Positions 2,833 through 28,902 of a DNA stretch of 28,902 nucleotides are shown here, piece by piece. This DNA is from a virus. A program made the position numbers and the translations under genes. The notes beneath the pieces are model-generated. The model made no database searches. It worked only from the letters and a program-made list of their open reading frames with translations, and was not told the DNA's origin. Position 1 is the stretch's first letter. Every line of letters starts with the position of its first letter. Where the stretch lies: the UHGV virus genome UHGV-1442816. One strand, given 5' to 3'.

Positions 2833-3572
2833 TATTGCGGCCCTCCGGTAGTTCCCCCGCCAGTCTGTACTCCGCCATGTTTATGCGTGGCGACACTGAT
2901 ACCAGAAGCTGTTACGTCATTCGTTACCGTCACCGGCCCAAGCATCGTCGCAGTACCGCCGCTTTCGCCCATTCCCTGAGACAAGTTGCCATTAATCGTT
3001 ACGTTGCCGTTCAGCGTGATAGTCGGGGATGTGATTGTCGTTCCACCTTCAGCCGTAGCCGTGAGCTGGCCCGGTGTTTGAACGGTGATGTTATGTCCTG
3101 CGGCAACCTCTACGAACGCCGCACCATCATCGGTTCGCAGCTGCGCGGCGCTGGTACTGATACCGCTGATTTTCTGTGCTTGCGACTGCGGGCCAACGAT
3201 GGCGAACGCATCAGATAAGTCATGCTGTCGCGGATCGACGGTCTCCTGAACGCCGCCGCTCTGCCACCAGAAATCGATGCAACGGTCGGCAAAGATAAGC
3301 AGGCATTCGTCGCCTTCTTTTACCGGAAAAGTCAGCGTACAACCGCCGCCACGCGGGAAGATAACCGGCACATCCACCAGCGGTTTTAATTCGGTGGAGC
3401 CATCGCCAACGATACCGCGAAGCGCTACCTCTACCGTGCAGGTAACAGTATCAGGATCGAACGACTGAATGATGCCGGGCATCGCTACGCGCATCTGGGT
3501 AGACACCGAATCGGCAATGGCCTGCGCGGTCTGCTGCTCACCGCCGATCTGTGATTGAGTTGGAATTGGCAT
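2832..3572 (-). CDS. Baseplate spike / assembly protein V (Mu gp45 / P2 gpV-like)
   Basis: 246-aa ORF with glycine-rich C-terminus (GGVQTGGGTTGGPQ) and position between hub and gp25-like genes. Confidence 0.65.
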   Translation of the reverse strand: MPIPTQSQIGGEQQTAQAIADSVSTQMRVAMPGIIQSFDPDTVTCTVEVALRGIVGDGSTELKPLVDVPVIFPRGGGCTLTFPVKEGDECLLIFADRCIDFWWQSGGVQETVDPRQHDLSDAFAIVGPQSQAQKISGISTSAAQLRTDDGAAFVEVAAGHNITVQTPGQLTATAEGGTTITSPTITLNGNVTINGNLSQGMGESGGTATMLGPVTVTNDVTASGISVATHKHGGVQTGGGTTGGPQ

Positions 3573-3580
3573 AAAAACCC

Positions 3581-3608
3581 CATAAAAAAACCCGCTCGGT
3601 GGCGGGTT
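3581..3608 (-). terminator. Intrinsic terminator downstream of the moron genes
   Basis: Minus strand reads AACCCGC-CACCGA-GCGGGTT followed by TTTTTTT: 7-bp GC-rich stem, 6-nt loop, U-tract. Lies between the stop of the 106-aa moron ORF (3630) and the start of gene V (3572). Confidence 0.65.
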
Positions 3609-3629
3609 AAATTCATACTTGAAATGAAA

Positions 3630-3950
3630 CTATAGGTTCTTACTAAGCACAAGCTTACAATCTTCAGCGCTTAGACCAGTCATTTGAGCTGATTCAGGAT
3701 AGCTACAATACATTTTCACTCGACGAAACCCGAGCACTGCGAATTGATCACCTTTACTACTCATCAACTCTTTTTCGCTGCCACCCTCTCTGCGTGCAAA
3801 TCCAGCAGCCTCCATGCCAGAAGCTTTAGAAATCGCGGTGTGTATAGCAAGGTTATTATCCAAATCTGGATGTTTTACAAAAAAATCACTTAACGTTCCA
3901 GCGCAAACGGAGGTGGATAGCAGAAAAAGAAGAGATACAAATCCTTTCAT
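3630..3950 (-). CDS. Small secreted protein (moron), unknown function
   Basis: 106-aa ORF with hydrophobic N-terminal signal peptide (MKGFVSLLFLLSTSVCAG), two later Cys, AT-rich relative to flanking tail genes, followed by its own terminator. Confidence 0.55.
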   Translation of the reverse strand: MKGFVSLLFLLSTSVCAGTLSDFFVKHPDLDNNLAIHTAISKASGMEAAGFARREGGSEKELMSSKGDQFAVLGFRRVKMYCSYPESAQMTGLSAEDCKLVLSKNL

Positions 3951-3955
3951 TAATT

Positions 3956-4294
3956 TTATCCTTTTATTTTTACACAGTCATAAGTTGCATACTGACGTGG
4001 TGCATCCATATTTGCTTGCAGCCACTGAGCATTCAGGATTGCTTTACCATTACGGCCAATAAACTCCATTCCTACCCATCGCCCTGGTTGATTGGTCGCT
4101 AAGCGCCATTCAATTTTGACGTTGTTATAATCACCGTCATTTTTAAGAAATGTCACTTTTTGCGATTCAGGTTTAGCTCCGTTTACGCGAGCGAAACCAT
4201 CATCAGCCCAATGGATGTTGAAATCACCACACTGAGAATCAGCAATAGCCTGGAAAGAAAATAATGCTGCAATGGTAAAAATTACGAGTTTCAC
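3956..4294 (-). CDS. Small secreted/periplasmic protein (moron), unknown function
   Basis: ORF track gives 3956..4336; I place the start at the in-frame GTG at 4294..4292, giving (M)KLVIFTIAALFSFQAIA/DSQ..., a canonical signal peptide, with a GAGG-containing stretch upstream and no overlap with the hub gene stop at 4305. AT-rich. Confidence 0.55.
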   Translation of the reverse strand: MKLVIFTIAALFSFQAIADSQCGDFNIHWADDGFARVNGAKPESQKVTFLKNDGDYNNVKIEWRLATNQPGRWVGMEFIGRNGKAILNAQWLQANMDAPRQYATYDCVKIKG

Positions 4295-4304
4295 GTCCCG
4301 TACC

Positions 4305-5369
4305 TCAGTAGTTTGTTTTTTGCATAGCACCAGCATTAACTAAATCACGACTGCCACGCGCAAAACACATCAAATCCATGTACCACGCTTGACCTCTGGT
4401 GTCGCCAGTATAGTCGATAGCTTTGACGATATAAACGCCATCTGTCGCAATGCTGGCAGCCTGTGACGTCGTGCCGGTCAGCACACGGTTGCCGTTCTCT
4501 TCTGTTTCGGTGATACGCCCGGGCGACTGTGCGATTTCGCTATTGCCGAGCGCGGCGCGGTACACCGAAGCCTGATCGAGCTGGATAAGACCATTAATGC
4601 GGATGTTGGGGTTTATCAGGCACCGCACGTTTACGCCGCCGCCCATAGTCTGTTGCGGCATACCGATCAGGCCAGTATCAGCATTCAACACAATGGCTTC
4701 GTGAATATATTTATCCTCCGGCACCATCTGGACCTGACCATCCACCAGTTGCCATGTCGCTTTGCACTGCGCAGCAATATTATCCATCACGTTGCGGCTG
4801 GATGAGTAAATCGCGCGGCCACGAGGAAACACGGTATCAGGAAAATCGCCGGTAATGCCCTGTGTCACGCCGAACGCGTTGAAATCCTGCATCGTCGCCC
4901 GGTGCAGATCCGCAACGGTATAGCCAGCGGCAAGCGTGGTGATGGTGGTCGCATAGAGGAACGCTTCGTGATCACCAATGGCCTGAATCAACACCCAGGA
5001 ATCCGTAATGTTGTCCTTCCCGGTGACGGTGAAGCGAATATCACCGTCAAAAATCAGGCCGTAGTTCTGACCGTTCACCTGCCCTATCTGGTCTGGTGAA
5101 ATCTCCCGGGACACACCAACCTGGCTCGCATCAACATCCGGCACTATACCGTCATACCCGGCAATGATGCGAATTTTGGCAAACTCCTGCCCAAGTATCT
5201 TGTTCGTGGTATCGGTCGAAAGGTTGTAAATTTTCACGTTCGCCACGCGTGGCCAGCGTGTGTCTGCCCACTCGATCTGGAACGTGACCTTAAAGTCAGA
5301 CAGGGAAACGCCCTGCCCGTTCTGGTCCAACAGTTGCAGCTCAAAATGGCGCATCCAGTTAAGAGACAT
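4305..5369 (-). CDS. Baseplate hub protein (Mu gp44 / P2 gpD-like)
   Basis: 354-aa ORF in the conserved position after the tape measure and two small tail genes, before the spike gene. Confidence 0.55.
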   Translation of the reverse strand: MSLNWMRHFELQLLDQNGQGVSLSDFKVTFQIEWADTRWPRVANVKIYNLSTDTTNKILGQEFAKIRIIAGYDGIVPDVDASQVGVSREISPDQIGQVNGQNYGLIFDGDIRFTVTGKDNITDSWVLIQAIGDHEAFLYATTITTLAAGYTVADLHRATMQDFNAFGVTQGITGDFPDTVFPRGRAIYSSSRNVMDNIAAQCKATWQLVDGQVQMVPEDKYIHEAIVLNADTGLIGMPQQTMGGGVNVRCLINPNIRINGLIQLDQASVYRAALGNSEIAQSPGRITETEENGNRVLTGTTSQAASIATDGVYIVKAIDYTGDTRGQAWYMDLMCFARGSRDLVNAGAMQKTNY

Positions 5370-9605: not shown

Positions 9606-10766
9606 TTAGCGAACCACGTTGATCTGCACATCGGCATAATGAACTGCGCCAGCCAGCTTACAAGCCACCTGGATTAACGGCGCTTTGCGTGCTTCTCGGT
9701 CAGCCTGTGCTTGCTCGGAAAGAGGTTGCGCATACACGTAATAACCTTTTGTCAGCGTATCGCCGGAATTCAGTTGCCCGATAGGGCCACCATTCCACAC
9801 GCCAGCCGCTACCAGACCGTTCGTGACGGACTGATCCATGGACTGTTCAACGTTGGAAAGCAGACGGGTCACACCGGCATCAGTCTGCGGAATTTTGGTG
9901 GTGCTGGTGTAAAGCAGGTTATAGAGGTTGGTCTGAACGTAGTTCTGCAACCAGTCGAGCCCGTGGCGCTCGTCGAAGAAGTCACCGTTCGCCATGACAC
10001 CCTGTTGCAGGATCGCCGTGTCGTTGGCGTAGTACACGAACACGTTCGCATTCTTCGCATCCACAGCCGCCGCCTGTCCTACCGTCAGCGTTTCGTAGGT
10101 TACGCTCGGTTCCTGTTTGAATTTCAGGGTAATGGTGGTATTGCTGCCGTTGAAATTGACAGTAAACGCGCGACCGAAAGCTGAAACCGCCGCATAAGGG
10201 CTGCTGGTGGAATATTGAATAAAGGTACGGGAATACTTACCGGCCTTTAATTTAGACGCAACATCGGTCGTCGAAGTCGTGCTGATGATCTCAGCGTCGG
10301 CTGACGTTACCCCGAAAATGCGGCTCAGGCTGGACGCTTCGATGAGTTTAGCAACCTCAATCACGTCGTCAGCATCAAGCACATCATCGCCATCAGCAAC
10401 ATCATCAGCGACAACCAGCCCATACCAGTTGGTATACTGCAGGCAGGCATTAACAGCTTGCACGATGGTTTCCACGCTTCCACCTTCGGAAGAGGTCAGC
10501 GTCTTCGCCCAGCGGCCAACATAAACCTGCGTCGGCTTCGGCGACTGGCTGAAGAAAACCTGCGCCGCTTCATATTCCGGGCTGTCGACTCCGAAGTCCT
10601 CGCCAATGTCCTCAACGGACGCATAAAGGCGAACGCGCTCCTGCACCGGAATGACAGTGGAAGAACCGAGGATCAGCAGTGCGCCGAAGTTACGACCAGT
10701 AGCCGCTTTCGGCGAGATGATCACATCAACGTTTACAACGTTGGATACAGGTAAGCCCTGCGTCAT
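9606..10766 (-). CDS. Tail sheath protein
   Basis: 386-aa ORF; size and position before the tube gene; sequence character resembles the myovirus sheath family. Confidence 0.8.
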
Positions 10767-11697: not shown

Positions 11698-12238
11698 CTT
11701 TATCCCTCACAACATGGGTAATGGCTCTGCGATATTGCCCGGTGTCAATTAGCGGTTTCACCAGGTCGGTTCCGGGAGACTCGCCAGCAGCGCGCCGCGC
11801 AAGTTCCGCTTTTGCCCCTTTGCGGCCACGGCGTGCACGGGCTTCAACGGTGCTATCAGCAAGCGGTGTAAAGCCGGTAATGGTCATGTAACGCCTGACG
11901 CCATTAGCGGCCAGCGTTCCGGCGCGGTTGAGCGCTCTTTCCGCACCCGCCGCATTACCATCAAGCGCAGCCTGCGCTGCTGCTTTTAGCTGCGGCACTG
12001 TCTGTTCTTCTACCGATTTAACACCGGGGATCAGGTGTGGTCGTGGGGGGATGTTTTGCGCCGGTGAGCCGTATTCATTGACGTAGCCGATCCCCGCATT
12101 ACCAAACGGAACATCTTCACGCTCGCTGTCTTCTTCCGGGATGCCCACCAGCACTTCTTTTTTACTGATGGATTTGAGCGCATCCAGGATGGCCTGAGCG
12201 TTATCCACCCTCGTTGTTACACCGCTTTTGAAACTCAT
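11684..12238 (-). CDS. Virion morphogenesis / neck protein, unknown function
   Basis: 184-aa ORF in the structural operon; start overlaps preceding stop. Confidence 0.4.
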
Positions 12239-12642
12239 AGCTGGCGACCGCCCGCACCGAACATCGTGATCAGCTGATAAAATTCAGCGCCATATCGGGT
12301 GTTATTCCAGAAGCCTGCGTCAGGGTTTAGCGTCGCGCTGGTGTCATAGCTGACGCTTACCTTGTCAACGGACTTGGAGGACTGAACACCATTGGTTGAG
12401 CCACCCGGGCCGCCGACGAGCATTGCCCGGCTATCTGCCGCCCAGAGCGTCATGTAGTGAGCCACGAACAACTCGACAAAGTACGGAAACAACTCTTTGC
12501 CGGTGACGTTTTCGCTCAGCAGCACATCAGCCAGATTCAGACGAAACTGGATTTGTGCTTCGGGATATTTGGCAGGGTCAGCAAACTGTGGAAAGTCGCG
12601 CCGAAAATCACTTACTGTTGGCAGGCTTTGATTCTTTGGCAT
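12235..12642 (-). CDS. Head completion / connector protein, unknown function
   Basis: ORF track gives 12235..12741; the first 30-odd codons overlap the upstream gene, so I favour the internal Met at about 12642. Confidence 0.4.
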
Positions 12643-12997
12643 CTTTCGCCCCATTACCGCCAGTCTGGGCGGCAGCAATCTGCGCTTGCAGGCTGTCGTT
12701 CTGCTCTTGCAGCTTGAGCAGCGCTTCTCGCAGATCGGCAATCAGCTGATCTTTATCGATAATCTGCTTATCTTTGTCGGCAATCTGAGCTTGCAGGCTG
12801 TCGATAATGGGTTGCAGATCATCGGTGTCGCTAATCACGCTTTCGGAAAGCTCGGAGTGCGCCTGGGTGAACCAGTGCGACGCGACCTCTTCCGGTACGT
12901 TATGCCGTCCCCGGCCAAACTCCCTTTTTGACTGATCGCCGAGCGTCAGCGTAAACGGGGTGTGAACATGGATGGTAACCAGCTTTTCTTTCGCCAT
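12608..12997 (-). CDS. Structural protein with C-terminal coiled-coil repeats, unknown function
   Basis: 129-aa ORF directly after the capsid gene and a stem-loop; C-terminus has heptad-like Q/D/K/L repeats mirrored by DNA repeats. Confidence 0.45.
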
Positions 12998-13038
12998 TTT
13001 CAGTTCCCTTCTGGCCCCTTTCGGGGCCGTTCTGGTTA

Positions 13039-13398
13039 TCAGATACCGTCCACGTAGGACAGGGTTTCTTTGTACACTGGCTCAACCGCACCGAGCTTGC
13101 CGTAGTAGGTCGCAATCTGATACAGACCGCGATACTGGACAGGAACGCTCTGCAACGGCACCAGCGGATAGCGCACGTATTTCTTGTCGTTGGTGTAGGC
13201 GATCATACGGTCTTTACCGCCAACCCCACGCCCTTTCAGCCATTTGACCGCTTTGATTTCAAGCGGAACGCCGTTCTGGTGGAAAGCGATAGTGTTCACA
13301 GCCAGATAGGTCAGCAGTGACTGGTTACCCGCTTCGGAAACCTTACGGCTCGCCAGCAGTGAATACTGCTCTGGCGGAATGCGCAGATCAGAAGGCAC
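13039..13398 (-). pseudogene. Major capsid protein, C-terminal part, downstream of an in-frame TAG
   Basis: Same frame as 13420..13980 and separated from it only by TAG at 13422..13420 plus seven sense codons. No Shine-Dalgarno sequence before the GTG at 13398. Confidence 0.55.
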
Positions 13399-13419
13399 GA
13401 TGGAATAACCGGATGCTGC

Positions 13420-13980
13420 CTAGGCATTAGACAGAATGCTGTTCACGCTATCGAGGATCTCGTCGTTGGTTGAGTTCGCCCAGGTCTTCGGCGCGTTGTT
13501 CAGCGTCACACCGACGAGGTTTGCCAGACCTTTCAGGCCGAGTGCGTCATCACCGATGTAAACCTGCTCGTCGTTGTCCATCTGCCATTTGAGCTGCATC
13601 CCGTCGTACTTCTGGGTATCAATCGGGCGGCCTACCTGCTGAGCAGCTGCCAGCTCTACAACGGTCCAGCCCAGTTCCATACCCCAGAGGTTCAGTGGAT
13701 TGCCGTCTTTGCTGATATCCACGTTCACGCCAGCAATAGCGGTGGAGTCTTTGCCTACCCAGTTTTTACCATTCGGATTTGCACCAGTACCCGCAGCGGC
13801 GAAGCTGGTATTCGTCCAGCTGGAAATGTCATCTGCGATAGACACGTCTTCACGCAGTTGAATATCTCGGGTCCAGGTGTACCCCACCAGAGGCAGGTTC
13901 AGCGTCTGGTCGAGTCGCTCCAGCTCCCCGATGAGAAAGGCACCAGAGCTATCAACGGTTGCCTGATCAAAAGTAATCAT
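13420..13980 (-). CDS. Major capsid protein, N-terminal part, ending at an in-frame amber codon
   Basis: 186-aa ORF in the position expected for the major capsid gene (after scaffold and a 167-aa head protein). The two parts together give about 313 aa, a typical capsid size. Confidence 0.55.
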   Translation of the reverse strand: MITFDQATVDSSGAFLIGELERLDQTLNLPLVGYTWTRDIQLREDVSIADDISSWTNTSFAAAGTGANPNGKNWVGKDSTAIAGVNVDISKDGNPLNLWGMELGWTVVELAAAQQVGRPIDTQKYDGMQLKWQMDNDEQVYIGDDALGLKGLANLVGVTLNNAPKTWANSTNDEILDSVNSILSNA

Positions 13981-13991
13981 TCGTCTGTTCC

Positions 13992-14495
13992 TTAAATCTT
14001 CCAGGAGATTTCTGCATTGCCGTTAGCGTCACCGGCCCCTGTGAATTCGGCGTTGGTCAGCGCCACGTTTTTGCCACTGACGGACGTGGACATGAAGCCG
14101 CCCAGCGGCACTTTGATGGATTCATCAGTGGAGACGACAACGTATACCGGGTCGCCTTTTTTGATGGTGCTGGCATCAAAATCAGAACCGAGATTAACGG
14201 TCATGTAGCCACGCTTCATGGCGTCACCCGGGAAGTTCTTATCCGTCCCCACCTGGCGAACCATGTCTGGCTGCGATGTGGTCGGATACGGACGAACGTA
14301 GATCCCCTTCACCTTGTCGGCGGTGTCACCGTCCGCCAGCGGCACGAAAAAGCCGTCAGCGTCATATTTGCCAGCCAGACCATAGGCAGCGAAGGCGTTA
14401 GCGGATTTAAGGATCACCGGCTCGACGGTTAAATCCTGCGGGCGAGAGATAGCCCCGGCAATGCCAACAGGCATCCGGTACAAATATGCAGTCAT
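13992..14495 (-). CDS. Head protein (possible decoration or accessory head protein)
   Basis: 167-aa ORF between scaffold/protease and major capsid genes. Confidence 0.45.
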   Translation of the reverse strand: MTAYLYRMPVGIAGAISRPQDLTVEPVILKSANAFAAYGLAGKYDADGFFVPLADGDTADKVKGIYVRPYPTTSQPDMVRQVGTDKNFPGDAMKRGYMTVNLGSDFDASTIKKGDPVYVVVSTDESIKVPLGGFMSTSVSGKNVALTNAEFTGAGDANGNAEISWKI

Positions 14496-14499
14496 TGGA

Positions 14500-15732
14500 T
14501 TATCCTTTGCGGTTAGACCAGAAGTCGGCGTTTTGTTTGTTCAGGGAAGCGATGCTGGTCATGCCCATATTTGGACGTTGTGCATCGCCCGTGGTGCTGC
14601 GGGTGTTTCGCCCTTTGGCAATCTCTGACACGGCGTTAAACGCCATATCTACCGATTGCTTGGGCAATTTGCGGATATCCGCATCACCGACAACCTGGCG
14701 AACCAGTGTTTTGTCAGCGGCAGCCAGCACATCACGTTTGAACGCGGTCGGTTTCACCTTACGGCTCAGATCGATACCCGGGACGATAACCTCGGCACGA
14801 TAGGCAGAGTCACCGGTAATCGTGGTTTCCTCTTCGTCGTCCTCGCCGTCGCCGGTCGGATCTTTTTTGTCTTTTTCGTCAGGCTTATTGTCGTTATCGC
14901 CCGTCGCAGTTCCTTCGAGCTTAGCCAGCAGGGCTTTGAGCAAGGTTTTGATATCGTCCTCGCCGTCGCCGGTTGGATCTCCGCCCATTTCCGGCTTTTT
15001 GTCCGGCAATGGTTGCTGCGGTGAAAGGTTAATGTTGAGGTTAACGCCGCTCGGCAGATCCCCTTCGTCACCCGTTACCGCCGCTGGCGCAGAGTCCAGC
15101 AGTTCGTTCATGGTGTCAGCGTCACCCGTTTTGATGGCCGTGCGCATGCGGGTCCACCAGCTTTTCTTTTGATTTGCCATTGTGTCTCTGTCTCCAATTG
15201 CACAACGATTTCCGGCTCTGCCTTTAGGGACAAGAGCCACATGGTTTCCGGTAATATCGACCTGCTCGGCTTTACCTGGCTCGGTCTGCTCGTACTCCGC
15301 GTCATAGCCGCACGACACTTCGCGCAGACCATCTTCGATAAGCTGAATGGCGCTTTCGTCTTTGACGATAAGGTCTGCCAGCATCAAATCAGACTGGTCA
15401 CCAGTCCCGCGCCGCACATTCTGAAGATGCCCGACAGCAAGCTCTTTCCAGTTCTCGGGATTTACCAGCCGCACATTCCCGTTTTCATCTTCAGGATGCA
15501 GGATCGTGATGCTCATCCCTTCGAATGAGGCGAGCGTGGCCGGATGGAATACCTGCTCAGGAGAACGCGTTACGACTATCTCACCGAGCTTGTCGGGTTT
15601 GAGGTTTGGCAGATCGGCAGCGCCGTAGAGCTGCTTACCCGTTCGACCTATCGGCACGTCTTTACACAACAGCGAGCCGTCAGCCAGCTGATAGCGGGTT
15701 TCCCCCAGCCGGGTATTGAAAAAATATTTCAT
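14500..15732 (-). CDS. Putative prohead protease / scaffold protein (Mu gpI-like)
   Basis: 410-aa ORF after the MuF-like gene; C-terminal half is highly acidic and low-complexity with repeated DPTGDGEDD motifs, typical of scaffolding domains. Confidence 0.5.
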   Translation of the reverse strand: MKYFFNTRLGETRYQLADGSLLCKDVPIGRTGKQLYGAADLPNLKPDKLGEIVVTRSPEQVFHPATLASFEGMSITILHPEDENGNVRLVNPENWKELAVGHLQNVRRGTGDQSDLMLADLIVKDESAIQLIEDGLREVSCGYDAEYEQTEPGKAEQVDITGNHVALVPKGRAGNRCAIGDRDTMANQKKSWWTRMRTAIKTGDADTMNELLDSAPAAVTGDEGDLPSGVNLNINLSPQQPLPDKKPEMGGDPTGDGEDDIKTLLKALLAKLEGTATGDNDNKPDEKDKKDPTGDGEDDEEETTITGDSAYRAEVIVPGIDLSRKVKPTAFKRDVLAAADKTLVRQVVGDADIRKLPKQSVDMAFNAVSEIAKGRNTRSTTGDAQRPNMGMTSIASLNKQNADFWSNRKG

Positions 15733-15746
15733 GGTTTACCTGCGAT

Positions 15747-16520
15747 TCAGGCGAGATAAGAATGAGGGTTGGGGAAGACGATTTCTTTGTAACAGCGGCA
15801 GTTCGGCAGCTCACCAGCGTGACCGGTCATACCGTCAAGCGTTGGAGGTCGGCCCCATTCGACAAACTTACCTTCCATCTCCCGATGAGAATGCCGGACG
15901 TCGCCATCTTCGGCTGTACGCCAGATATAACCATTCGAGCCGATTGACAGCGCACGCGCCTGATCCAGCGCGCCGGTTGCGCGTCCAAGCTCGGTACGGG
16001 CGATAAGGTTCGCTCGTGAGCGTGACACGTCACCGGACGCAGCTATCTCTTTCGCGAATGGCTCAGCGCGGCCACCAGCCACAACGGCCTCGATGGCTTT
16101 GTTCTGAATGTCATACACCCGATCGGCGGCCTCAAGAGGCAGTGACTTGATGTACTTAATTTGCTCGGCGACGATGGATTTCATCACCTGGCCTACCGGG
16201 GCGCGGTCGACCATGTTGCGTAGTTCTGCGCTGATGTTCCGGCTGTGCTGACGCCACTGCTTTTCATTCTGGCGCGCTATGTCTGCGGTGAAGTTCTCAG
16301 CAACCTTCGTCGCCCAGGGGGTGATGATTTCGCTGTAGCGCTCCAGCGCATCCATTATTTCGGTGACGCTATCGTTTGAACCATCGTAGCGCCCATTTAC
16401 GATATCCCCGACCGCCCGCGCTATCTGCCGTAGGCTCGTTCGATATCGGATCTCCGCCTGGCGACTCTGGCGGTTTGTCGCCAAGTTCGCCGATGCCTGG
16501 CGGCGCTTCGTCTTCGGCAT
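15747..16520 (-). CDS. Head morphogenesis protein (Mu F / SPP1 gp7 family)
   Basis: 257-aa ORF immediately after the portal gene; start uncertain because the first ~50 codons overlap the portal 3' end. Confidence 0.6.
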   Translation of the reverse strand: MPKTKRRQASANLATNRQSRQAEIRYRTSLRQIARAVGDIVNGRYDGSNDSVTEIMDALERYSEIITPWATKVAENFTADIARQNEKQWRQHSRNISAELRNMVDRAPVGQVMKSIVAEQIKYIKSLPLEAADRVYDIQNKAIEAVVAGGRAEPFAKEIAASGDVSRSRANLIARTELGRATGALDQARALSIGSNGYIWRTAEDGDVRHSHREMEGKFVEWGRPPTLDGMTGHAGELPNCRCYKEIVFPNPHSYLA

Positions 16521-17838
16521 TCTCGATATCCTCGTCGGTAATGGATGCCCCGATGCCGGTGACGTCAGAGTTTTCGCGCAGGTCGGTCATCGCCGCCTTA
16601 CGCGTCATCAATCCGTCGCCCAGCGCGGTACTGATCGCGTTGGTGGTGTTTACGGCCACCGTTGATCGGTCAACGTCTGACATTTGCCATAGCGGGTTAA
16701 ACTCAAACGTGAAATCGTCCGGCAGCGGCTTACCGAGTTCCGATCGGTGCATAATGTCCAGTATCCGGCGCATCGGCAGCCGTAAGCGGCGCTCCTGCAA
16801 TGAGCTCACCCGGTCGTAATAGTTGGCGAGGTCTGCGTCACCAGTAGAGAAGCCTTTTGGGGACTGACCGAACAGGCGTACCAGCGGGATACCAACGGCA
16901 CCGCTGATCTGCTCAGCGAACTGCGAAAGAATGTCATCCAGACCACTGAAGCTGTACTGGTGGGTTTCGAACTTATCCCGCGAGTCCATGAGCGTCATGC
17001 CTTCATTGCTCTGGAACTGGCGGATCAGGTCGATGTTCTTCAGCAGCGCCTCGAACGCCGGGCCGCCAAGCGCGATAAGCTCTCGCAGCTTCTCCACGCT
17101 GTAGGTGCGCAGATGCGCTTTGTAGACCAACTGAGCCGCGCCGACAGTGGCGCTGTCGAACGCAGTAAGCCGATCCCAGATACGCTCTACAACCGACATT
17201 CCCCATTCGTTTTCGGTCATCTTCTGCTGGAATGGCAGCGTCACCCCGTCGAAGCGGATCAGGCGACTGTGATGGATGCGCCAGGCCGGGATGCCCGTTG
17301 CGGTGGTCACCACGTCGTAAAACTCAGGTTTGCCGAGATCTGGCCCCATCTCTTTAATGCGGCGTGTCAGCACCGGGTTAATCATCCAGCGGTCGAGCGG
17401 GAGAATGCCCTTAAACTTGCCCTCGCCAATGGTTTCGAGTCGCAGCGGGGTCATTGGTGCCTGCCCCTCGATCATGATGAAGCCGACCGCGCCGCCGTAG
17501 AGACGCGACCATTTCAGCACGTCGTTCAGCGCATCCCAGATCTGCAACTCATCCAGTTGCGCTTCGAGGGTGCCACGGTCTTTGGCGTCAATCTCCGAAG
17601 TGATGCGAATGCCTTTACGGGTCATGTCGTCCGGGATAGCGTCGACCGCTTCGCCGATAACCCACGAACCGCGATATGACCATTCCACCAGCATGCGGTT
17701 GCGGCTGGTGGAGTTCGCCCGGTAGGTTGATGCTGAATGCTGGTTAGGCGTCTGCATCCCCACGCGGGCGAAAAAGTTCTCATAGCCATCAGCGGTGGCC
17801 TGTGCCGTTCGCTGAGAGGATTGCTTGTTTCGTGCCAT
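16369..17838 (-). CDS. Portal protein
   Basis: About 490 aa; I place the start at the Met whose ATG overlaps the terminase stop (TGATG) rather than the upstream Met of the ORF-track call 16369..17865. Position directly after the large terminase. Confidence 0.75.
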   Translation of the reverse strand: MARNKQSSQRTAQATADGYENFFARVGMQTPNQHSASTYRANSTSRNRMLVEWSYRGSWVIGEAVDAIPDDMTRKGIRITSEIDAKDRGTLEAQLDELQIWDALNDVLKWSRLYGGAVGFIMIEGQAPMTPLRLETIGEGKFKGILPLDRWMINPVLTRRIKEMGPDLGKPEFYDVVTTATGIPAWRIHHSRLIRFDGVTLPFQQKMTENEWGMSVVERIWDRLTAFDSATVGAAQLVYKAHLRTYSVEKLRELIALGGPAFEALLKNIDLIRQFQSNEGMTLMDSRDKFETHQYSFSGLDDILSQFAEQISGAVGIPLVRLFGQSPKGFSTGDADLANYYDRVSSLQERRLRLPMRRILDIMHRSELGKPLPDDFTFEFNPLWQMSDVDRSTVAVNTTNAISTALGDGLMTRKAAMTDLRENSDVTGIGASITDEDIENAEDEAPPGIGELGDKPPESPGGDPISNEPTADSAGGRGYRKWALRWFKR

Positions 17839-19283
17839 CAGGCTTGCCTCCCGAGCAATTCCCAAATATCCATTGTTGTATCGGTCGGCGCGAACGCCAT
17901 TATGAAAGCGTCGGCAATGTTAGGTGAGGGGATATCGCGCTTAGCCAAATCTTTCTTGCTTTCAACCATAACCCTACCGTTACGATCAAAGTCTCGGTGC
18001 GGGGTCGTCAGCTCAAGCTTTAGTTTCTCCAGGTGCGGGCACGATGAATCGATACTTATCAACTCATCAACAGGATATTCCTCTCCATTTTTCACCGCGT
18101 TGAACGTATTACGAAAGCGATCAGCTACCAGCCACCATGCCTGGGCTTTCAGATTGGCAAAGAAGTCTTTATTCGGAATGCCGTTATATTCAGAATCTGG
18201 CTCGTTCACACCAGCGCCAGCATTGAAGCGTTGATAATTAACTGGTCGTGAATAAGGATTTTCACGTCGTCTGTCTTCGTTAATTTCCGAGAATTTAGCA
18301 CCAGCAGAAGCGCCAACACCAATGGAGTCATAAACGATATCAGCACTTCTCTCTGTGGCTGCCTGATATGCCCGCTGGCAGCTTTTAAGAAGCTCGTCTT
18401 CTTTTGCCTTCCATTCATCAGCCCAATACACAACGGAGCCATGACGATAAACATTGGAGCACTTATCCGCACCGCTATCGGCAACGTCGAAGCCTATTCG
18501 CTTTCGTCCGTTTGGCTCAAAACCAAGCACCTTATGGGCATCTATTGCAGCCTCAATCCACGAAAGTTTAATAATTGCCGCGTCATCATCAGATTCGGGA
18601 ACCCCCATATAAACGTGGTCAAACCCCTCCGGATCACGACGCTTTGCAGCCGAGATAACCTTAAGCATGGTGTCTGAGAGGAATGGGTTTTCGTCGTAAT
18701 TGATTTTTCGCACCAACGTATCTTCTGGTGGATCAACAACGAAATTACGCCATACAAAGTCAGTCACCAGACCAGGGTTAAAAATAAACCAGCATTCAGA
18801 TCCGCTTTTACGAATGGTTGGTTCCAGTATCTTCCACTGGTATTCCGTTAGTGCATGGGCTTCTTCAAGCCACAAAACGCTGATACCTTCCAGGGATTTA
18901 ATTTCTTCGATATTGCGCCATAAACCGTAAAACACGAATTCTGAGCCAGTGACCCGGTTGATAATTTTATTATTCAGAATTCGGAAGCGATGCCGCAGCC
19001 CAAACCGTTCAATCTGTATTTTGAGCAGGGTATAAACCGACTCTTCGATTTTGTTCTGAATTTGACGTGCGCAACAGAAACGCAGGTTGTATTTATTTGC
19101 CAGAAAGACAGCAAACCCAGCAGCATCCCATGACTTTGACGATGAGCGCCCACCAAAAAGTACTTTATTTCGAGCCTGTGTCGTCCAGAAGTTCCTTAGG
19201 GCCGGATTCAGGGTCGGTTTGGATGTCAGAGTAGAAGTCATTAAGGTCACGATCTCCATTACCGTCATCAACGCCAGCATCAC
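17838..19283 (-). CDS. Terminase large subunit
   Basis: 481-aa ORF with Walker A-like GGRSSSKS near the N-terminus; size and position. True start may be an internal Met near 19241. Confidence 0.8.
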   Translation of the reverse strand: MMLALMTVMEIVTLMTSTLTSKPTLNPALRNFWTTQARNKVLFGGRSSSKSWDAAGFAVFLANKYNLRFCCARQIQNKIEESVYTLLKIQIERFGLRHRFRILNNKIINRVTGSEFVFYGLWRNIEEIKSLEGISVLWLEEAHALTEYQWKILEPTIRKSGSECWFIFNPGLVTDFVWRNFVVDPPEDTLVRKINYDENPFLSDTMLKVISAAKRRDPEGFDHVYMGVPESDDDAAIIKLSWIEAAIDAHKVLGFEPNGRKRIGFDVADSGADKCSNVYRHGSVVYWADEWKAKEDELLKSCQRAYQAATERSADIVYDSIGVGASAGAKFSEINEDRRRENPYSRPVNYQRFNAGAGVNEPDSEYNGIPNKDFFANLKAQAWWLVADRFRNTFNAVKNGEEYPVDELISIDSSCPHLEKLKLELTTPHRDFDRNGRVMVESKKDLAKRDIPSPNIADAFIMAFAPTDTTMDIWELLGRQA

Positions 19284-19920
19284 GACGAAGGCGATCCGCT
19301 TCCAGAGACACTTTGTCAGTGGAGGCGAGCCGATGCTCTATAGATGCCTTTGTGAATTCCAGCGACTCAATGCGGGCCGTGTTACGGTGCATGGCTTTTT
19401 GCGCAGATGAAATTAGCTCGTGAAGATTATTGGCGGTATCGCCATCAGCTATTTCAAGCTCAGTCTGCCAGCGGCCAATATTTTCAGCAGCGGTAAGGTT
19501 CGCCGCACGCAACCAGAAAAGCTCATCATCAAGAGTGAGCGCCTGAGCATCCTCGGTAATGGCATCAGATAGAAGCATTCGGCGTCCATAGCCACCATGC
19601 TTCAATGCGTTCTGATTTCCGGGTCTGGAATTATAATGAGCGCGTTTCGTTTCTGGTGAGTTTGATGGTTTTGCGACTTCGCAGTTATCCACTAAGCCCG
19701 CTGGTGGCTTACTCTTTGCCACTTTCTCCTTTTGCGAATTCGCAGTTTTATTCGCACTTTTCTTTTGCGAATTCGCACTACCATTCGCAATTTTGATATA
19801 GCGCTTTGCAGTCGAGTAATTCAGTCCCTGCGCTTCGCACCATTCTTTGGGGGAAATGCCGGTTTTGGCATGTTCGGACAGGAACCGTTGCTGAAGCTCG
19901 CCCCAGTCCGGCTTTGCCAT
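19165..19920 (-). CDS. Terminase small subunit (putative)
   Basis: 251-aa ORF directly upstream of and overlapping the large terminase gene; central lysine-rich linker with internal repeats. Confidence 0.6.
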   Translation of the reverse strand: MAKPDWGELQQRFLSEHAKTGISPKEWCEAQGLNYSTAKRYIKIANGSANSQKKSANKTANSQKEKVAKSKPPAGLVDNCEVAKPSNSPETKRAHYNSRPGNQNALKHGGYGRRMLLSDAITEDAQALTLDDELFWLRAANLTAAENIGRWQTELEIADGDTANNLHELISSAQKAMHRNTARIESLEFTKASIEHRLASTDKVSLEADRLRRDAGVDDGNGDRDLNDFYSDIQTDPESGPKELLDDTGSK

Positions 19921-20698: not shown

Positions 20699-21158
20699 TT
20701 ACCACCCCACCTGCCTCTTTAAACCGGGAAATCAGGTCACTGATTTTATGTTCATACTGACCGTAACCTGCACCGGGTAACGACGCCCAGATATTGCTGC
20801 AACGGTCGATAGCCTGACGAATATCACCGCGATCAATCATCGGCAAAGCGCCACGTTCCTTAATCTGCTGCAATGCCACAGCGTCCTGGCTTTTCGGAGA
20901 GAAATCTTTCAGGCCAAGTTGCTTACGGTAGGCATCCCACCAACGGGAAAGAAGCTGGTAACGTCCGGCTGCTGTTGATTTGAGTTTTGGGTTTAGCGTG
21001 ACAAGTTTGCGAGGGTGATCTGAGTAATCAGTGAATAGCTCTCCGCCAACAATGACGTCATAACCATGATTTCTGGTTTTCTGTCGTCCGTTATCTGTTC
21101 CCTCTGACCACGCCAGCATATCTAGGAACGCCTTACGTTGATTATTGATTTCCACCAT
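20682..21158 (-). CDS. R: Endolysin, lambda R-type lytic transglycosylase
   Basis: 158-aa translation [49 protein letters not shown]... matches lambda R over most of its length by my recollection, diverging at the C-terminus. Confidence 0.9.
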
Positions 21159-21465
21159 CTTCTACTCCGGCTTTTTTAGCAGCGAAGCGTTTGATAAGCG
21201 AACCAATCGAGTCAGTACCGATGTAGCCGATGAACACGCTCGTTATATAAGCGAGATTGCTACTTAGTCCGGCGAAGTCGAGAAGGTCACGAATGAACCA
21301 GGCGATAATGGCGCACATCGTTGCGTCGATTACTGTTTTTGTAAACGCACCACCATTATATCTGCCGCGAAGGTACGCCATTGCAAACGCAAGGATTGCC
21401 CCGATGCCTTGTTCCTTTGCCGCGAGAATGGCGGCTAACAGGTCATTTTTTTCTGGCATCTTCAT
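21142..21465 (-). CDS. S: Holin, lambda S-type, with dual-start motif
   Basis: 107-aa translation [39 protein letters not shown]... is near-identical to lambda S by recollection; Met1-Lys2-Met3 dual start is retained. Confidence 0.9.
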
Positions 21466-21860
21466 GTCTTACCCCCAATAAGGGGACTTGCTCTATTTAA
21501 TTAGGAATAAGGTCGATTACTGATAGAACAAATCCAGGCTACTGTGTTTAGTAATCAGATTTGTTCGTGACCGATATGCACGGGCAAAACGGCAGGAGGT
21601 TGTTAGCGCAACCTCATGCCGCCCGCTTTCACGAAGATCATGTGTAGAAGGCCGCAGCGTAACTATCACTGATGAATTCAGGATAGCCAGTGGCTACGGC
21701 TCAGTTTGGGTCGTGCTGTTGCTGGGCGGCGATGACGCCTGTACGCATTTGGTGATCCGGTTCTGCTTCCGGTACTCGCTTAATTCAGCACAACGGAAAG
21801 AGCACTCAATGCATTTAAGCCAAGCCCCATAAGGGAGAATGCTCTTACCTGTTGCACAGA

Positions 21861-21923
21861 TATAAAAAATCCCGAAACCGTTATGCAGGCTCTAACTATT
21901 ACCTGCGAACTGTTTCGGGATTG
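21861..21923 (-). terminator. tR' intrinsic terminator (end of 6S RNA)
   Basis: Minus strand reads AATCCCGAAACAGTTCGCAGGTAATAGTTAGAGCCTGCATAACGGTTTCGGGATTTTTTATA: long hairpin plus U-tract, matching my recollection of lambda tR'. Confidence 0.75.
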
Positions 21924-22133: not shown

Positions 22134-22757
22134 TTAACGTGTGACCGCATTCAAAATGTTGTCTGCGATTGACTCTTCTTTGTGGCATTGCACCACCAGA
22201 GCGTCATACAGCGGCTTAACAGTGCGTGACCAGGTTGGTTGGGTAAGGTTGGGTATTAGCATCGTCACAGCGCGATATGCGGCGCTTGCTGGCATTCTTG
22301 AATAGCCGACACCTTTGCATCTTCCGCATTCTTTCTCAACAACTCTCCCCCACAGCTCTGTTTTTGATATATCAACCGCACGGCCTGTACCGTGGCAATC
22401 TCTGCACCTTGCTCCCGGCGTCGCGGCACTACGGCAATAATCCGCATAAGCGAATGTTGCGAGCACTTGCAGTACCTTTGCCTTAGTATTTCCTTCAAGC
22501 TTTGCCACGCCACGGTATTTCCCCGATACCTTGTGTGCAAATTGCATCAGATAGTTGATAGCCTTTTGTTTGTCGTTCTGGCTGAGTTCGTGCTTACCGC
22601 AGAATGCAGCCATACCGAATCCGGCTTGTGATTGCGCCATCCCCATAGCAGCCATCACATCAGTACCGGAAAGAGAGTCAGAAGCCGTGGCCCGTGGTGA
22701 GTCGCTCATCATCGGGCTTTTTGGCGAATGAAATTTAGCTACGCTTTCGAGTCTCAT
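22134..22757 (-). CDS. Q: Late gene antiterminator Q (lambda Q-type)
   Basis: 207-aa translation matches my recollection of lambda Q along its length, including the Cys-rich zinc-binding region (CRDCHGTGR...CGRCKGVG). Confidence 0.9.
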   Translation of the reverse strand: MRLESVAKFHSPKSPMMSDSPRATASDSLSGTDVMAAMGMAQSQAGFGMAAFCGKHELSQNDKQKAINYLMQFAHKVSGKYRGVAKLEGNTKAKVLQVLATFAYADYCRSAATPGARCRDCHGTGRAVDISKTELWGRVVEKECGRCKGVGYSRMPASAAYRAVTMLIPNLTQPTWSRTVKPLYDALVVQCHKEESIADNILNAVTR

Positions 22758-24651: not shown

Positions 24652-24826
24652 ATTTCCTCGCACGATGTCTTAGCCACCGGATATCCCACAGGTGAGCCGT
24701 GTAGTTGAAGGTTTTTACGTCAGATTCTTTTGGGATTGGCTTGGGTTTATTTCTGGAGCGTTTCGTTGGAAGGTATTTGCAGTTTTCACAGATTATGTCG
24801 GTGATACTTCGTCGCTGTCTCGCCAT
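24650..24826 (-). CDS. ninE: NinE
   Basis: Below size cutoff. Translation [58 protein letters not shown], with AGGAGG Shine-Dalgarno upstream; matches my recollection of lambda NinE. Confidence 0.7.
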
Positions 24827-24966
24827 ACGTCCTCCTTTTCCTGCGGTAGTGGTAAAACTCCTGTTGGTGTTCTTTCACACCGGAGACACCATCGATTCCA
24901 GTAAGGTTGATTTGGTCTGAAGCGGTTATCTTCTTTGCATTCACCGCACCGATCACATCGCATCAT
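24793..24966 (-). CDS. ninD: NinD (zinc-ribbon-like)
   Basis: 57 aa from the Met whose ATG overlaps the ninB stop: [34 protein letters not shown]... Overlaps ninE by 34 nt as I recall for lambda ninD/ninE. Confidence 0.6.
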
Positions 24967-25403
24967 GCTGCCCGGTCTCCCCATCGCGCTTTCCATTCGA
25001 GAGCCAGTCGCGCTTCGTCTGACCACTTAACGCCACGCTCTGTACCGAATGCCTGTATAAGCTCTAATAGCTCCGCAAATTCGCTTACACGCATCCTGCT
25101 GGTTGACTGGCCTATTACCACAAAGCCATTCCCGGCAAGGTTAGGAACAACATCCTGCTGCTTTAATGCTGCGGTAAACACACACTTCCAGCTTTCTGCA
25201 TCCAGCCAGCGACCATGCCATTCAACCTGACGAGAGACGTCACCAAGGCAAGCCCAAAGCTTTCGGTTCTGGTCTAAGCTGCGGTTGCGTTCCTGAATGG
25301 TTACTACGATTGGTTTGGTTGGGTCTGGAAGAATTTGCTGTATCGCGTGAATAGCGTTTTGTTGATGAATGGGGCTTCTTAGTTCAAACGTTAGCTTCCT
25401 CAT
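24963..25403 (-). CDS. ninB: NinB (Orf-family recombination mediator)
   Basis: 146-aa translation is near-identical to lambda NinB by recollection (...[56 protein letters not shown]...). Confidence 0.9.
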
Positions 25404-25638
25404 TGCTCACCTTCTGCACGCATGGATTAATTAACGCCAAAATAGCTTCTGGTTTCTCAATAACATCGAACCGCTCACCACTTGTCATTCTTACAATCGT
25501 AATCCCGGCCTCAAATAGGGTTTCGATGTTGTCAGAGTTAACGTACAAGGGCTCATATGCACTTCTGGTGCTTTCTATCACGCCTGTGCTTGGTGGCTGA
25601 TAGATGCTGCATTGCATGGTTAATTTTATAAATGGCAT
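25384..25638 (-). CDS. Hypothetical protein in the position of lambda ren
   Basis: 84-aa ORF between helicase-side accessory genes and ninB; no lambda Ren similarity. Confidence 0.4.
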   Translation of the reverse strand: MPFIKLTMQCSIYQPPSTGVIESTRSAYEPLYVNSDNIETLFEAGITIVRMTSGERFDVIEKPEAILALINPCVQKVSNEEANV

Positions 25639-25642
25639 ATAC

Positions 25643-25963
25643 TCACTCCTTCACTTTGATTCCAGCAGCGCGGATGTTTTCCTCATAAGCATCCATTGCA
25701 TCACCGAAGCCATTGGAATAATCAACAGTAAACCCTTTGGCTAATGCTTCTCTGCTGTCGATAAACTTTGGCGCGGTTATTTCAATAGCTGATCGCGATG
25801 CCTGCCACGTTTGCCAGTGGCCTTGAACATCGTCCATCACGTATTGACCACCAATATTACCACTGCCAATTTCATGGTGATTTTCAGGGTAACGGATAAG
25901 GTCTGAGGATTCGCCTCCACGTCGCAACCAACTTTCTTCAAACTGCCTTCTTGATTCGTCCAT
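25643..25963 (-). CDS. Hypothetical protein
   Basis: 106-aa ORF, tightly packed with neighbours. Confidence 0.4.
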   Translation of the reverse strand: MDESRRQFEESWLRRGGESSDLIRYPENHHEIGSGNIGGQYVMDDVQGHWQTWQASRSAIEITAPKFIDSREALAKGFTVDYSNGFGDAMDAYEENIRAAGIKVKE

Positions 25964-25980
25964 CGGTACTTACCCTCAGT

Positions 25981-26187
25981 TCAACTCAAAAAACGCCACG
26001 CCATTTTTGCTACAGCGACAGGCATAACACCGATAATCACCCAGACAAATGCAGCGCCAAACAACGTATACCATGGGTCTTTACCGTCATTCACAAGACG
26101 AATGTAGCCATGCAGAACAATAAAAAACGTCAGAAGAATCCATCCAACGCCGACGCATTTGAGTGCGACGAGCATAAACTCAACCAC
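25981..26187 (-). CDS. Small membrane protein with two predicted transmembrane helices
   Basis: 68-aa ORF starting at GTG; hydrophobic stretches VALKCVGVGWILLTFFIVL and FGAAFVWVIIGVMPVAVA. Confidence 0.45.
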   Translation of the reverse strand: MVEFMLVALKCVGVGWILLTFFIVLHGYIRLVNDGKDPWYTLFGAAFVWVIIGVMPVAVAKMAWRFLS

Positions 26188-26263
26188 GATTTACTCTCCC
26201 CCAAATAAAAAGGCCTGCGATTACCAGCAGGCCTGTTACAAGCTCAGTGATGTAGATGGTCAT
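26180..26263 (-). CDS. 27-aa hydrophobic peptide, translationally coupled to helicase
   Basis: Not in ORF track. ATG overlaps helicase stop (TGATG) with AAGGAGG 7 nt upstream; product MTIYITELVTGLLVIAGLFIWGRVNRG is one transmembrane helix; its stop overlaps the start of the 68-aa gene. Confidence 0.35.
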   Translation of the reverse strand: MTIYITELVTGLLVIAGLFIWGRVNRG

Positions 26264-28736: not shown

Positions 28737-28815
28737 TGTGGATTGATCCAGTAATGACCTCAGAATTGCATATCAATTTGCTTAAAATCCTCGGTGGCGG
28801 CCGGGGATTTTTTCT
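28737..28815 (+). ncRNA. oop-like antisense RNA overlapping the cII 3' end (putative)
   Basis: Plus-strand hairpin AAAATCCTCGG-TGGCGGC-CCGGGGATTTT followed by TTCTTTGT at 28784..28820 lies antisense to the cII 3' end, as for lambda oop. A possible -10 CATAAT at 28725..28730 would give a ~77-nt transcript. Confidence 0.4.
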
Positions 28816-28902
28816 TTGTGATTTCATCAAGCGCATACTTAAAAGCCCTGCTAATCGGACTGATGTCTGATGCCATTCCTAAAGCACACAAGACCGAAGC
28901 AA
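28760..28902 (-). CDS. cII: CII-like transcriptional activator, C-terminal 47 codons (5' partial)
   Basis: Minus-strand ORF entering from beyond the window end and stopping at TGA 28762..28760; C-terminus ...ITKKKSPAATEDFKQIDMQF resembles lambda CII ...NKKRPAATERSEQIQMEF. Confidence 0.65.
   Translation of the reverse strand, partial: ASVLCALGMASDISPISRAFKYALDEITKKKSPAATEDFKQIDMQF

Follow-up and report, generated by a model that had tools for sequence, protein, structure and literature searches.

A single amber codon at a former Dcm site probably inactivates the major capsid gene of a SEN34-like Escherichia coli prophage

The Salmonella phage SEN34 is an inducible, plaque-forming temperate myovirus whose tail is contractile and whose early region resembles that of lambda (PMC5261728). 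Its major capsid protein (YP_009191613.1, Brunovirus) is encoded by a 942-bp gene, preceded by the genes of a DUF1073 portal, a Mu F-like protein, a DUF2213 protein and a cement protein; the same neighbours accompany the gene of the intact 313-aa protein WP_000627486.1, which is recorded on 907 contigs. In the more distant phage Pam3, the T=7 capsid is built from gp7, a major capsid protein with the canonical HK97 fold, and gp6 is the cement protein (PMC9942802). The stretch of DNA analysed here, 28,902 nucleotides long and referred to below as the window, is an entire draft contig of E. coli that carries most of a SEN34-like (Brunovirus-type) temperate myovirus prophage with a lambdoid early region. 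Its virion module, which runs through the terminase, portal, Mu F, DUF2213, cement, capsid, sheath, tube and baseplate genes, is collinear with those of SEN34 and of the prophage in E. coli CX12, and its capsid gene has the same length as that of SEN34, the same neighbours as the SEN34 and WP_000627486.1 genes, and 91.2% DNA identity to the former. Unlike both of them, however, the window copy carries TAG rather than TGG at codon 187.

Dcm methylates the inner cytosine of CCWGG, and the resulting 5-methylcytosine deaminates to thymine, giving T:G mismatches, of which very-short-patch repair corrects only a part. Such deamination at Dcm sites is reportedly the classical source of the amber hotspots in lacI, an account said to go back to Coulondre et al. 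in 1978. The change in the capsid gene resembles those hotspots in its ancestral CCWGG, in the mutated inner cytosine, in the C-to-T direction and in the amber product. The two cases differ in strand and codon: in lacI, CAG becomes TAG on the coding strand, whereas in the window gene TGG becomes TAG and the deaminated cytosine would be that of the non-coding strand. The interrupted locus comprises the following features.

13039..13980, minus strand: major capsid protein gene, now a pseudogene, of 313 codons plus TGA with one internal TAG (PF09950/DUF2184, HK97 fold)
13420..13980, minus strand: ORF of the 186-aa N-terminal truncated product, with an ATG start and ending in ...SILSNA followed by TAG, from ORF translation
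13420..13422, minus strand: amber TAG replacing TGG (Trp187), from codon comparison with CX12, AR_0119, SEN34, IMG/VR relatives and solved homologues
13420..13424, plus strand: former Dcm site, now CTAGG and ancestrally CCAGG, with a C-to-T change at base 13421 (the inner cytosine)
13039..13398, minus strand: ORF of the 119-aa C-terminal remnant, with an internal GTG start, from ORF translation, in the same frame as the 186-aa ORF

The original prediction had described two minus-strand ORFs lying in one frame and split by a TAG and seven codons, the downstream one lacking a Shine-Dalgarno sequence before its GTG, and the two together giving about 313 aa in the slot of the major capsid gene. 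This description was borne out. The ORF list and the translation agree on the common frame and on the seven sense codons (AASGYSI) between the TAG at 13422..13420 and the GTG at 13398, the joined frame has 313 codons with a family match across the stop, and inspection of the 25 nt preceding the GTG (CTAGGCAGCATCCGGTTATTCCATC) revealed no Shine-Dalgarno motif. An AAGGA Shine-Dalgarno motif stands 9 nt 5' of the ATG at 13980. Since it has no ribosome-binding site, the 119-aa remnant is probably untranslated, and its product alone would be of no use; the 186-aa fragment is the sole product expected in a non-suppressing host. In the databases the 3' part is labelled by NCBI as 'major capsid family protein, partial' (MEF0411046.1 / WP_331435871.1), and the 186-aa ORF is called as a gene of its own in the Logan and ENA assemblies.

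With the tryptophan restored, the 313-aa product matched the Pfam family PF09950 (Major_capside, formerly DUF2184) with a score of 275 bits against a curated cut-off of 26.8 bits, covering positions 4-251 of the 251-position profile; each separate fragment is also tagged PF09950 among the precomputed matches. A sequence search of the PDB returned two solved capsid subunits, 8hdt_A (Pam3 gp7, E=2.8e-18, residues 72-312) and 7kmx_A (the XM1 major capsid protein, PDB 7KMX, E=1e-6, residues 75-297), and in both alignments a tryptophan is placed at position 187. Pam3 and XM1, which are minimal myophages, resemble the window element in this capsid homology, in the tryptophan and in the adjacent cement protein families PF22758 and PF23982, but they are distant from it in sequence and infect a cyanobacterium and a Vibrio, respectively. 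The alignment to related capsid proteins that the original prediction had proposed thus showed homology running through the stop, in the Pfam profile as well as in 8hdt_A. Because the profile match spans the stop and the gene is only one base off its CX12 counterpart, the juxtaposition of the two ORFs is not due to chance, and the locus is one interrupted gene. With a TAG at codon 187 it does not have the uninterrupted frame of a family member and is a PF09950 pseudogene rather than a functional representative.

The closest intact counterpart is the 942-bp gene of E. coli CX12, an allele also carried by CX08 and TOK-001. It is identical to the window gene at 941 of 942 bases, the sole difference being a coding-strand G-to-A change at gene position 560 (window 13421), which converts codon 187 from TGG to TAG. 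Codon 187 is TGG in strain AR_0119 and in SEN34 too, as it is in all of the best 80 relatives in IMG/VR (63 distinct DNA alleles), none of which has an internal stop, and in 341 complete E. coli genomes the gene is annotated as a single DUF2184 protein. A 61-nt stretch around the site was matched by 24 complete E. coli genomes, none with TAG at codon 187; an exact-pattern scan with TCNAATGCCTAGGCNGCNTCCGG gave no match in IMG/VR or in GTDB representative genomes, and the same scan of JGI metagenomes gave only one match, which was unrelated and due to chance. Recurrence of the amber in other lineages was rejected on the present data from these scans and the 24 genomes. Given TGG in CX12, AR_0119, SEN34 and the 80 IMG/VR relatives, together with the tryptophan aligned in the PDB homologues, comparison of sequences identifies a conserved tryptophan as the ancestral residue and the stop as a derived nonsense mutation. 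The question of which residue relatives carry at the stop, left by the original prediction among seven possibilities, is therefore answered by tryptophan (TGG) within a single 313-aa gene; homologues with two separate genes at this position, which would have spoken against the prediction, were not found among the relatives examined, all of which have one 313-aa gene.

Several other sequences break near the same codon. Two proteins, from S. flexneri (P0041) and K. michiganensis (P0042), seemingly start at codon 187/188, but they are partials at contig ends and not the result of stops. A further protein of this kind (P0010, from the Logan locus L088) carries indels and no amber. Contigs of S. 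flexneri (GCA_052322695.1) and K. michiganensis (GCA_020117715.1) have their position 1 within 3 nt of capsid codon 187, and the divergence between the window gene and that of SEN34 falls from 67/558 before this codon to 15/381 after it. The two draft contigs ending there and the drop in divergence suggest a mosaic or recombination boundary near codon 187, a feature that would cause assembly graphs to fork.

The rest of the element was compared with the CX12 prophage. Upstream of the capsid gene lies the head module:

13992-14495, minus strand: cement protein (PF22758/PF23982), with no stop
14500-15732, minus strand: DUF2213 protein, 100% identical in protein to CX12
15747-16355, minus strand: Mu F-like head morphogenesis protein, 100% identical in protein to CX12
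16369-17838, minus strand: DUF1073 portal, 100% identical in protein to CX12
17838-19241, minus strand: large terminase, PBSX-type, 100% identical in protein to CX12
19165-19920, minus strand: 251-aa protein, 100% identical in protein to CX12

All genes of this module (13992..19920, minus strand) are full length and stop-free, with protein identities to CX12 of 99.4-100%, and 3' of the capsid gene follow the head-tail connector, sheath, tube and baseplate genes. When the 46 annotated proteins of the CX12 prophage were searched against the window by tblastn, 41 were matched and only the capsid alignment held a stop; the other matched proteins were of full or near-full length, with three exceptions: two whose genes run off the ends of the window, and the sheath, present as a shorter allele. 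The replication, tail and lysis genes (the last comprising holin, GH104 lysozyme and DUF2570) are intact, and the amber is the only visible lesion in the 28.9-kb window. Over 12207-17364 the window and CX12 differ by three nucleotides, the amber included. Because the gene has no further changes, because so few differences separate this region from CX12 and because the carrier lineage is narrow, the mutation is most likely very recent, judging from the sequences compared.

A change at a CCWGG motif could be a sequencing or assembly artefact, the true codon being TGG and the prophage intact, as the original prediction had allowed. Dcm sites are recognised as difficult for nanopore basecalling, methylated motifs provoke nanopore errors (PMC11610603), and two related sequences have lesions of this kind: L088 (Logan SRR8494922, positions 1-703; an allele 95% identical) has 2-nt and 1-nt deletions at two CCTGGG sites, at codons 167 and 187, and P0007 from ENA has a 1-nt deletion at the CCTGGG motif of codon 187. 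These deletions look like methylation- or homopolymer-related long-read errors rather than real mutations, whereas the window change is a clean substitution. Moreover, the two ends of the window fall within a tail-fibre gene and within cII, and since short-read assemblies break at repeats in this way, we infer that it was assembled from short reads, and base calls from short reads are unaffected by 5-methylcytosine. The same base was also obtained by several assemblers from several runs. A Logan contig (ERR11812232) common to five samples is identical to the window at 17,018/17,018 bases, amber included, another Logan contig (SRR35898253) is identical at 1,481/1,481 bases, and the allele is present in the 32,651-bp ENA contig k119_80076 (ERZ27229930), which bears the MEGAHIT-style name of a metagenome assembly. 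In all, an NCBI isolate draft carries the amber allele, as do the MEGAHIT metagenome contig from ENA and the Logan k-mer assemblies of no fewer than six runs; these are independent as assemblies and runs, although they may share one strain or study. With 100% identity over up to 17 kb among such assemblies, we regard an artefact as highly unlikely.

If the base is real, the gene might still be expressed through a host amber suppressor tRNA or efficient read-through of UAG, leaving the prophage functional. The perfectly preserved frame 3' of the stop and the intactness of the remaining prophage agree with such expression, but a preserved frame is expected of any very recent mutation, here one difference in 942 bp. 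Three other genes of the window (plug, portal and NinX) have TAG as their normal terminator, and, as TAG, TAA and TGA all serve as terminators there, stop-codon reassignment was ruled out. A phage-borne suppressor tRNA was rejected as well, as ARAGORN found no tRNA in the window; the cassette between holin and Q, a spacer in which relatives have tRNAs, gave neither a tRNA with ARAGORN nor a match in Rfam. The usual suppressors insert Gln, Tyr or Ser instead of the conserved tryptophan, and a T=7 capsid demands about 415 subunits. The marks of programmed read-through are thus missing from the locus, where the stop is not conserved, no suppressor tRNA lies nearby and TAG is not avoided; since the stop is likewise absent from the best 80 IMG/VR loci, the 24 E. 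coli genomes and the IMG/VR and GTDB pattern scans, the dependence on amber suppression that the original prediction had considered found no support, and we hold it to be improbable. Low-level natural read-through of UAG could nevertheless yield a little full-length protein. That gene callers annotate two ORFs might point to two separate genes, or to a capsid gene with a programmed split or recoding, but the single 313-aa gene in 341 complete E. coli genomes, 80 IMG/VR loci and SEN34, the lack of a ribosome-binding site before the downstream ORF, and a stop conserved nowhere leave this idea with practically no probability. Finally, selection might keep the headless state, the lineage gaining inducible lysis and headless contractile tails as a tailocin-like weapon with no spread of phage. 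Intact tail, baseplate and lysis genes and the occurrence of the allele in several samples are compatible with a weapon of this kind, to which we give a very small chance; if true, the lineage would be a snapshot of the first step in tailocin domestication.

We therefore consider it very probable that a recent TGG-to-TAG mutation at a Dcm site inactivated the capsid gene and that an otherwise intact prophage is now defective. Among the three alternatives of the original prediction, a capsid-defective prophage fits best with the one-base nonsense change, the homology through the stop and the conserved tryptophan. Its main reading of one capsid gene with one amber stands, and the ancestral TGG and the position at a Dcm site are additions that go beyond it.

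As to the origin of the mutation, the coding strand ancestrally read GCCTGGGC, in which the codons GCC TGG GCA contain CCTGG, and this motif is kept in 78 of the 80 IMG/VR relatives; the window thus differs from an ancestral CCWGG by a C-to-T change at the inner cytosine. Dcm sites occur three times in the gene, each time in the frame NCC-TGG (W36, W167 and W187), and at each of them deamination of 5-methylcytosine on the non-coding strand would convert TGG (Trp) to amber. A stop could be created in the gene by 100 single substitutions, of which 35 are transitions, and since only 3 of these 35 lie on a Dcm 5-methylcytosine, the position of the amber is a suggestive pointer to an origin by methylation. 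PMC9520237, citing Cherry 2018, states that the inner C of CCWGG undergoes C-to-T mutation about 8-fold faster than other cytosines do in the genomes of E. coli and Salmonella. From such an excess it would follow that roughly seven in eight C-to-T changes at a site of this kind are due to methylation; the attribution to Dcm is probabilistic because G:C-to-A:T transitions are common anyway. Deamination of 5-methylcytosine is most likely the source of the amber, with the dcm status of the host and the methylation of the site assumed from general E. coli biology. In the proposed course of events, the Dcm-methylated inner cytosine of CCAGG would have deaminated spontaneously to thymine, and the resulting T:G mismatch would have escaped very-short-patch repair.

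Translation of the mutated gene would end after residue 186, giving a product that lacks 126 residues (40%) at the C-terminus of the HK97-fold subunit; by sequence alignment to 8HDT, the lost part corresponds approximately to residues 184-310 of Pam3 gp7. Because of this loss, the truncated subunit should fail to assemble and no capsids would be made. Since the replication, lysis and tail genes are intact, induction would be expected still to allow replication, the making of tails and cell lysis, and induced cells may free tails while releasing no infectious particles. Like defective (cryptic) prophages that arose by point inactivation of structural genes, the element is an integrated phage with one lesion in an essential virion gene, but unlike those that have long decayed it would be at the very first step, with every other gene intact. 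All of its parts are of known kinds, namely a populated capsid family, a familiar prophage type and a textbook mutation, and no new mechanism is involved. In annotations, a single capsid pseudogene with an internal stop (W187amber) would be the right label for the locus, in place of two 'partial' or hypothetical proteins, and the prophage ought to score as defective although it is gene-complete; tools that judge prophage completeness by counting genes would call it intact. The locus offers a clean natural example of a Dcm 5-methylcytosine hotspot leading to an amber and of the first mutational step of prophage decay.

Some further differences from CX12 and features of the window ends were observed. 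The window starts inside a tail-fibre ('glycine-rich domain') gene (1-602) and stops inside cII (28763-28900), both ends probably being assembly breaks at sequences common to other prophages; the equivalent prophage in CX12 adjoins tRNA-Arg and intS. Between the holin (21142-21465) and the Q antiterminator (22134-22757), the window has at 21710..21862 an unrelated cassette of about 150 nt with flanks identical to CX12, which carries tRNA-Thr and tRNA-Asn in this spacer. The window segments 24826..26263 and 3572..4305 have no counterpart in CX12, and conversely the window lacks a match for the CX12 N-6-adenine methyltransferase beside NinB and for the small CX12 genes between baseplate V and a 354-aa protein; these unmatched segments are typical lambdoid mosaicism. 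The tail sheath (9606..10766, minus strand) is an intact ORF of its own of 386 aa, as in the locus L004 and near the 1152-bp gene of SEN34, against 496 aa in CX12. Its N-terminal 98 aa are only 48% identical to those of the CX12 protein and a middle segment is absent, which marks a mosaic replacement or an insertion-domain difference.
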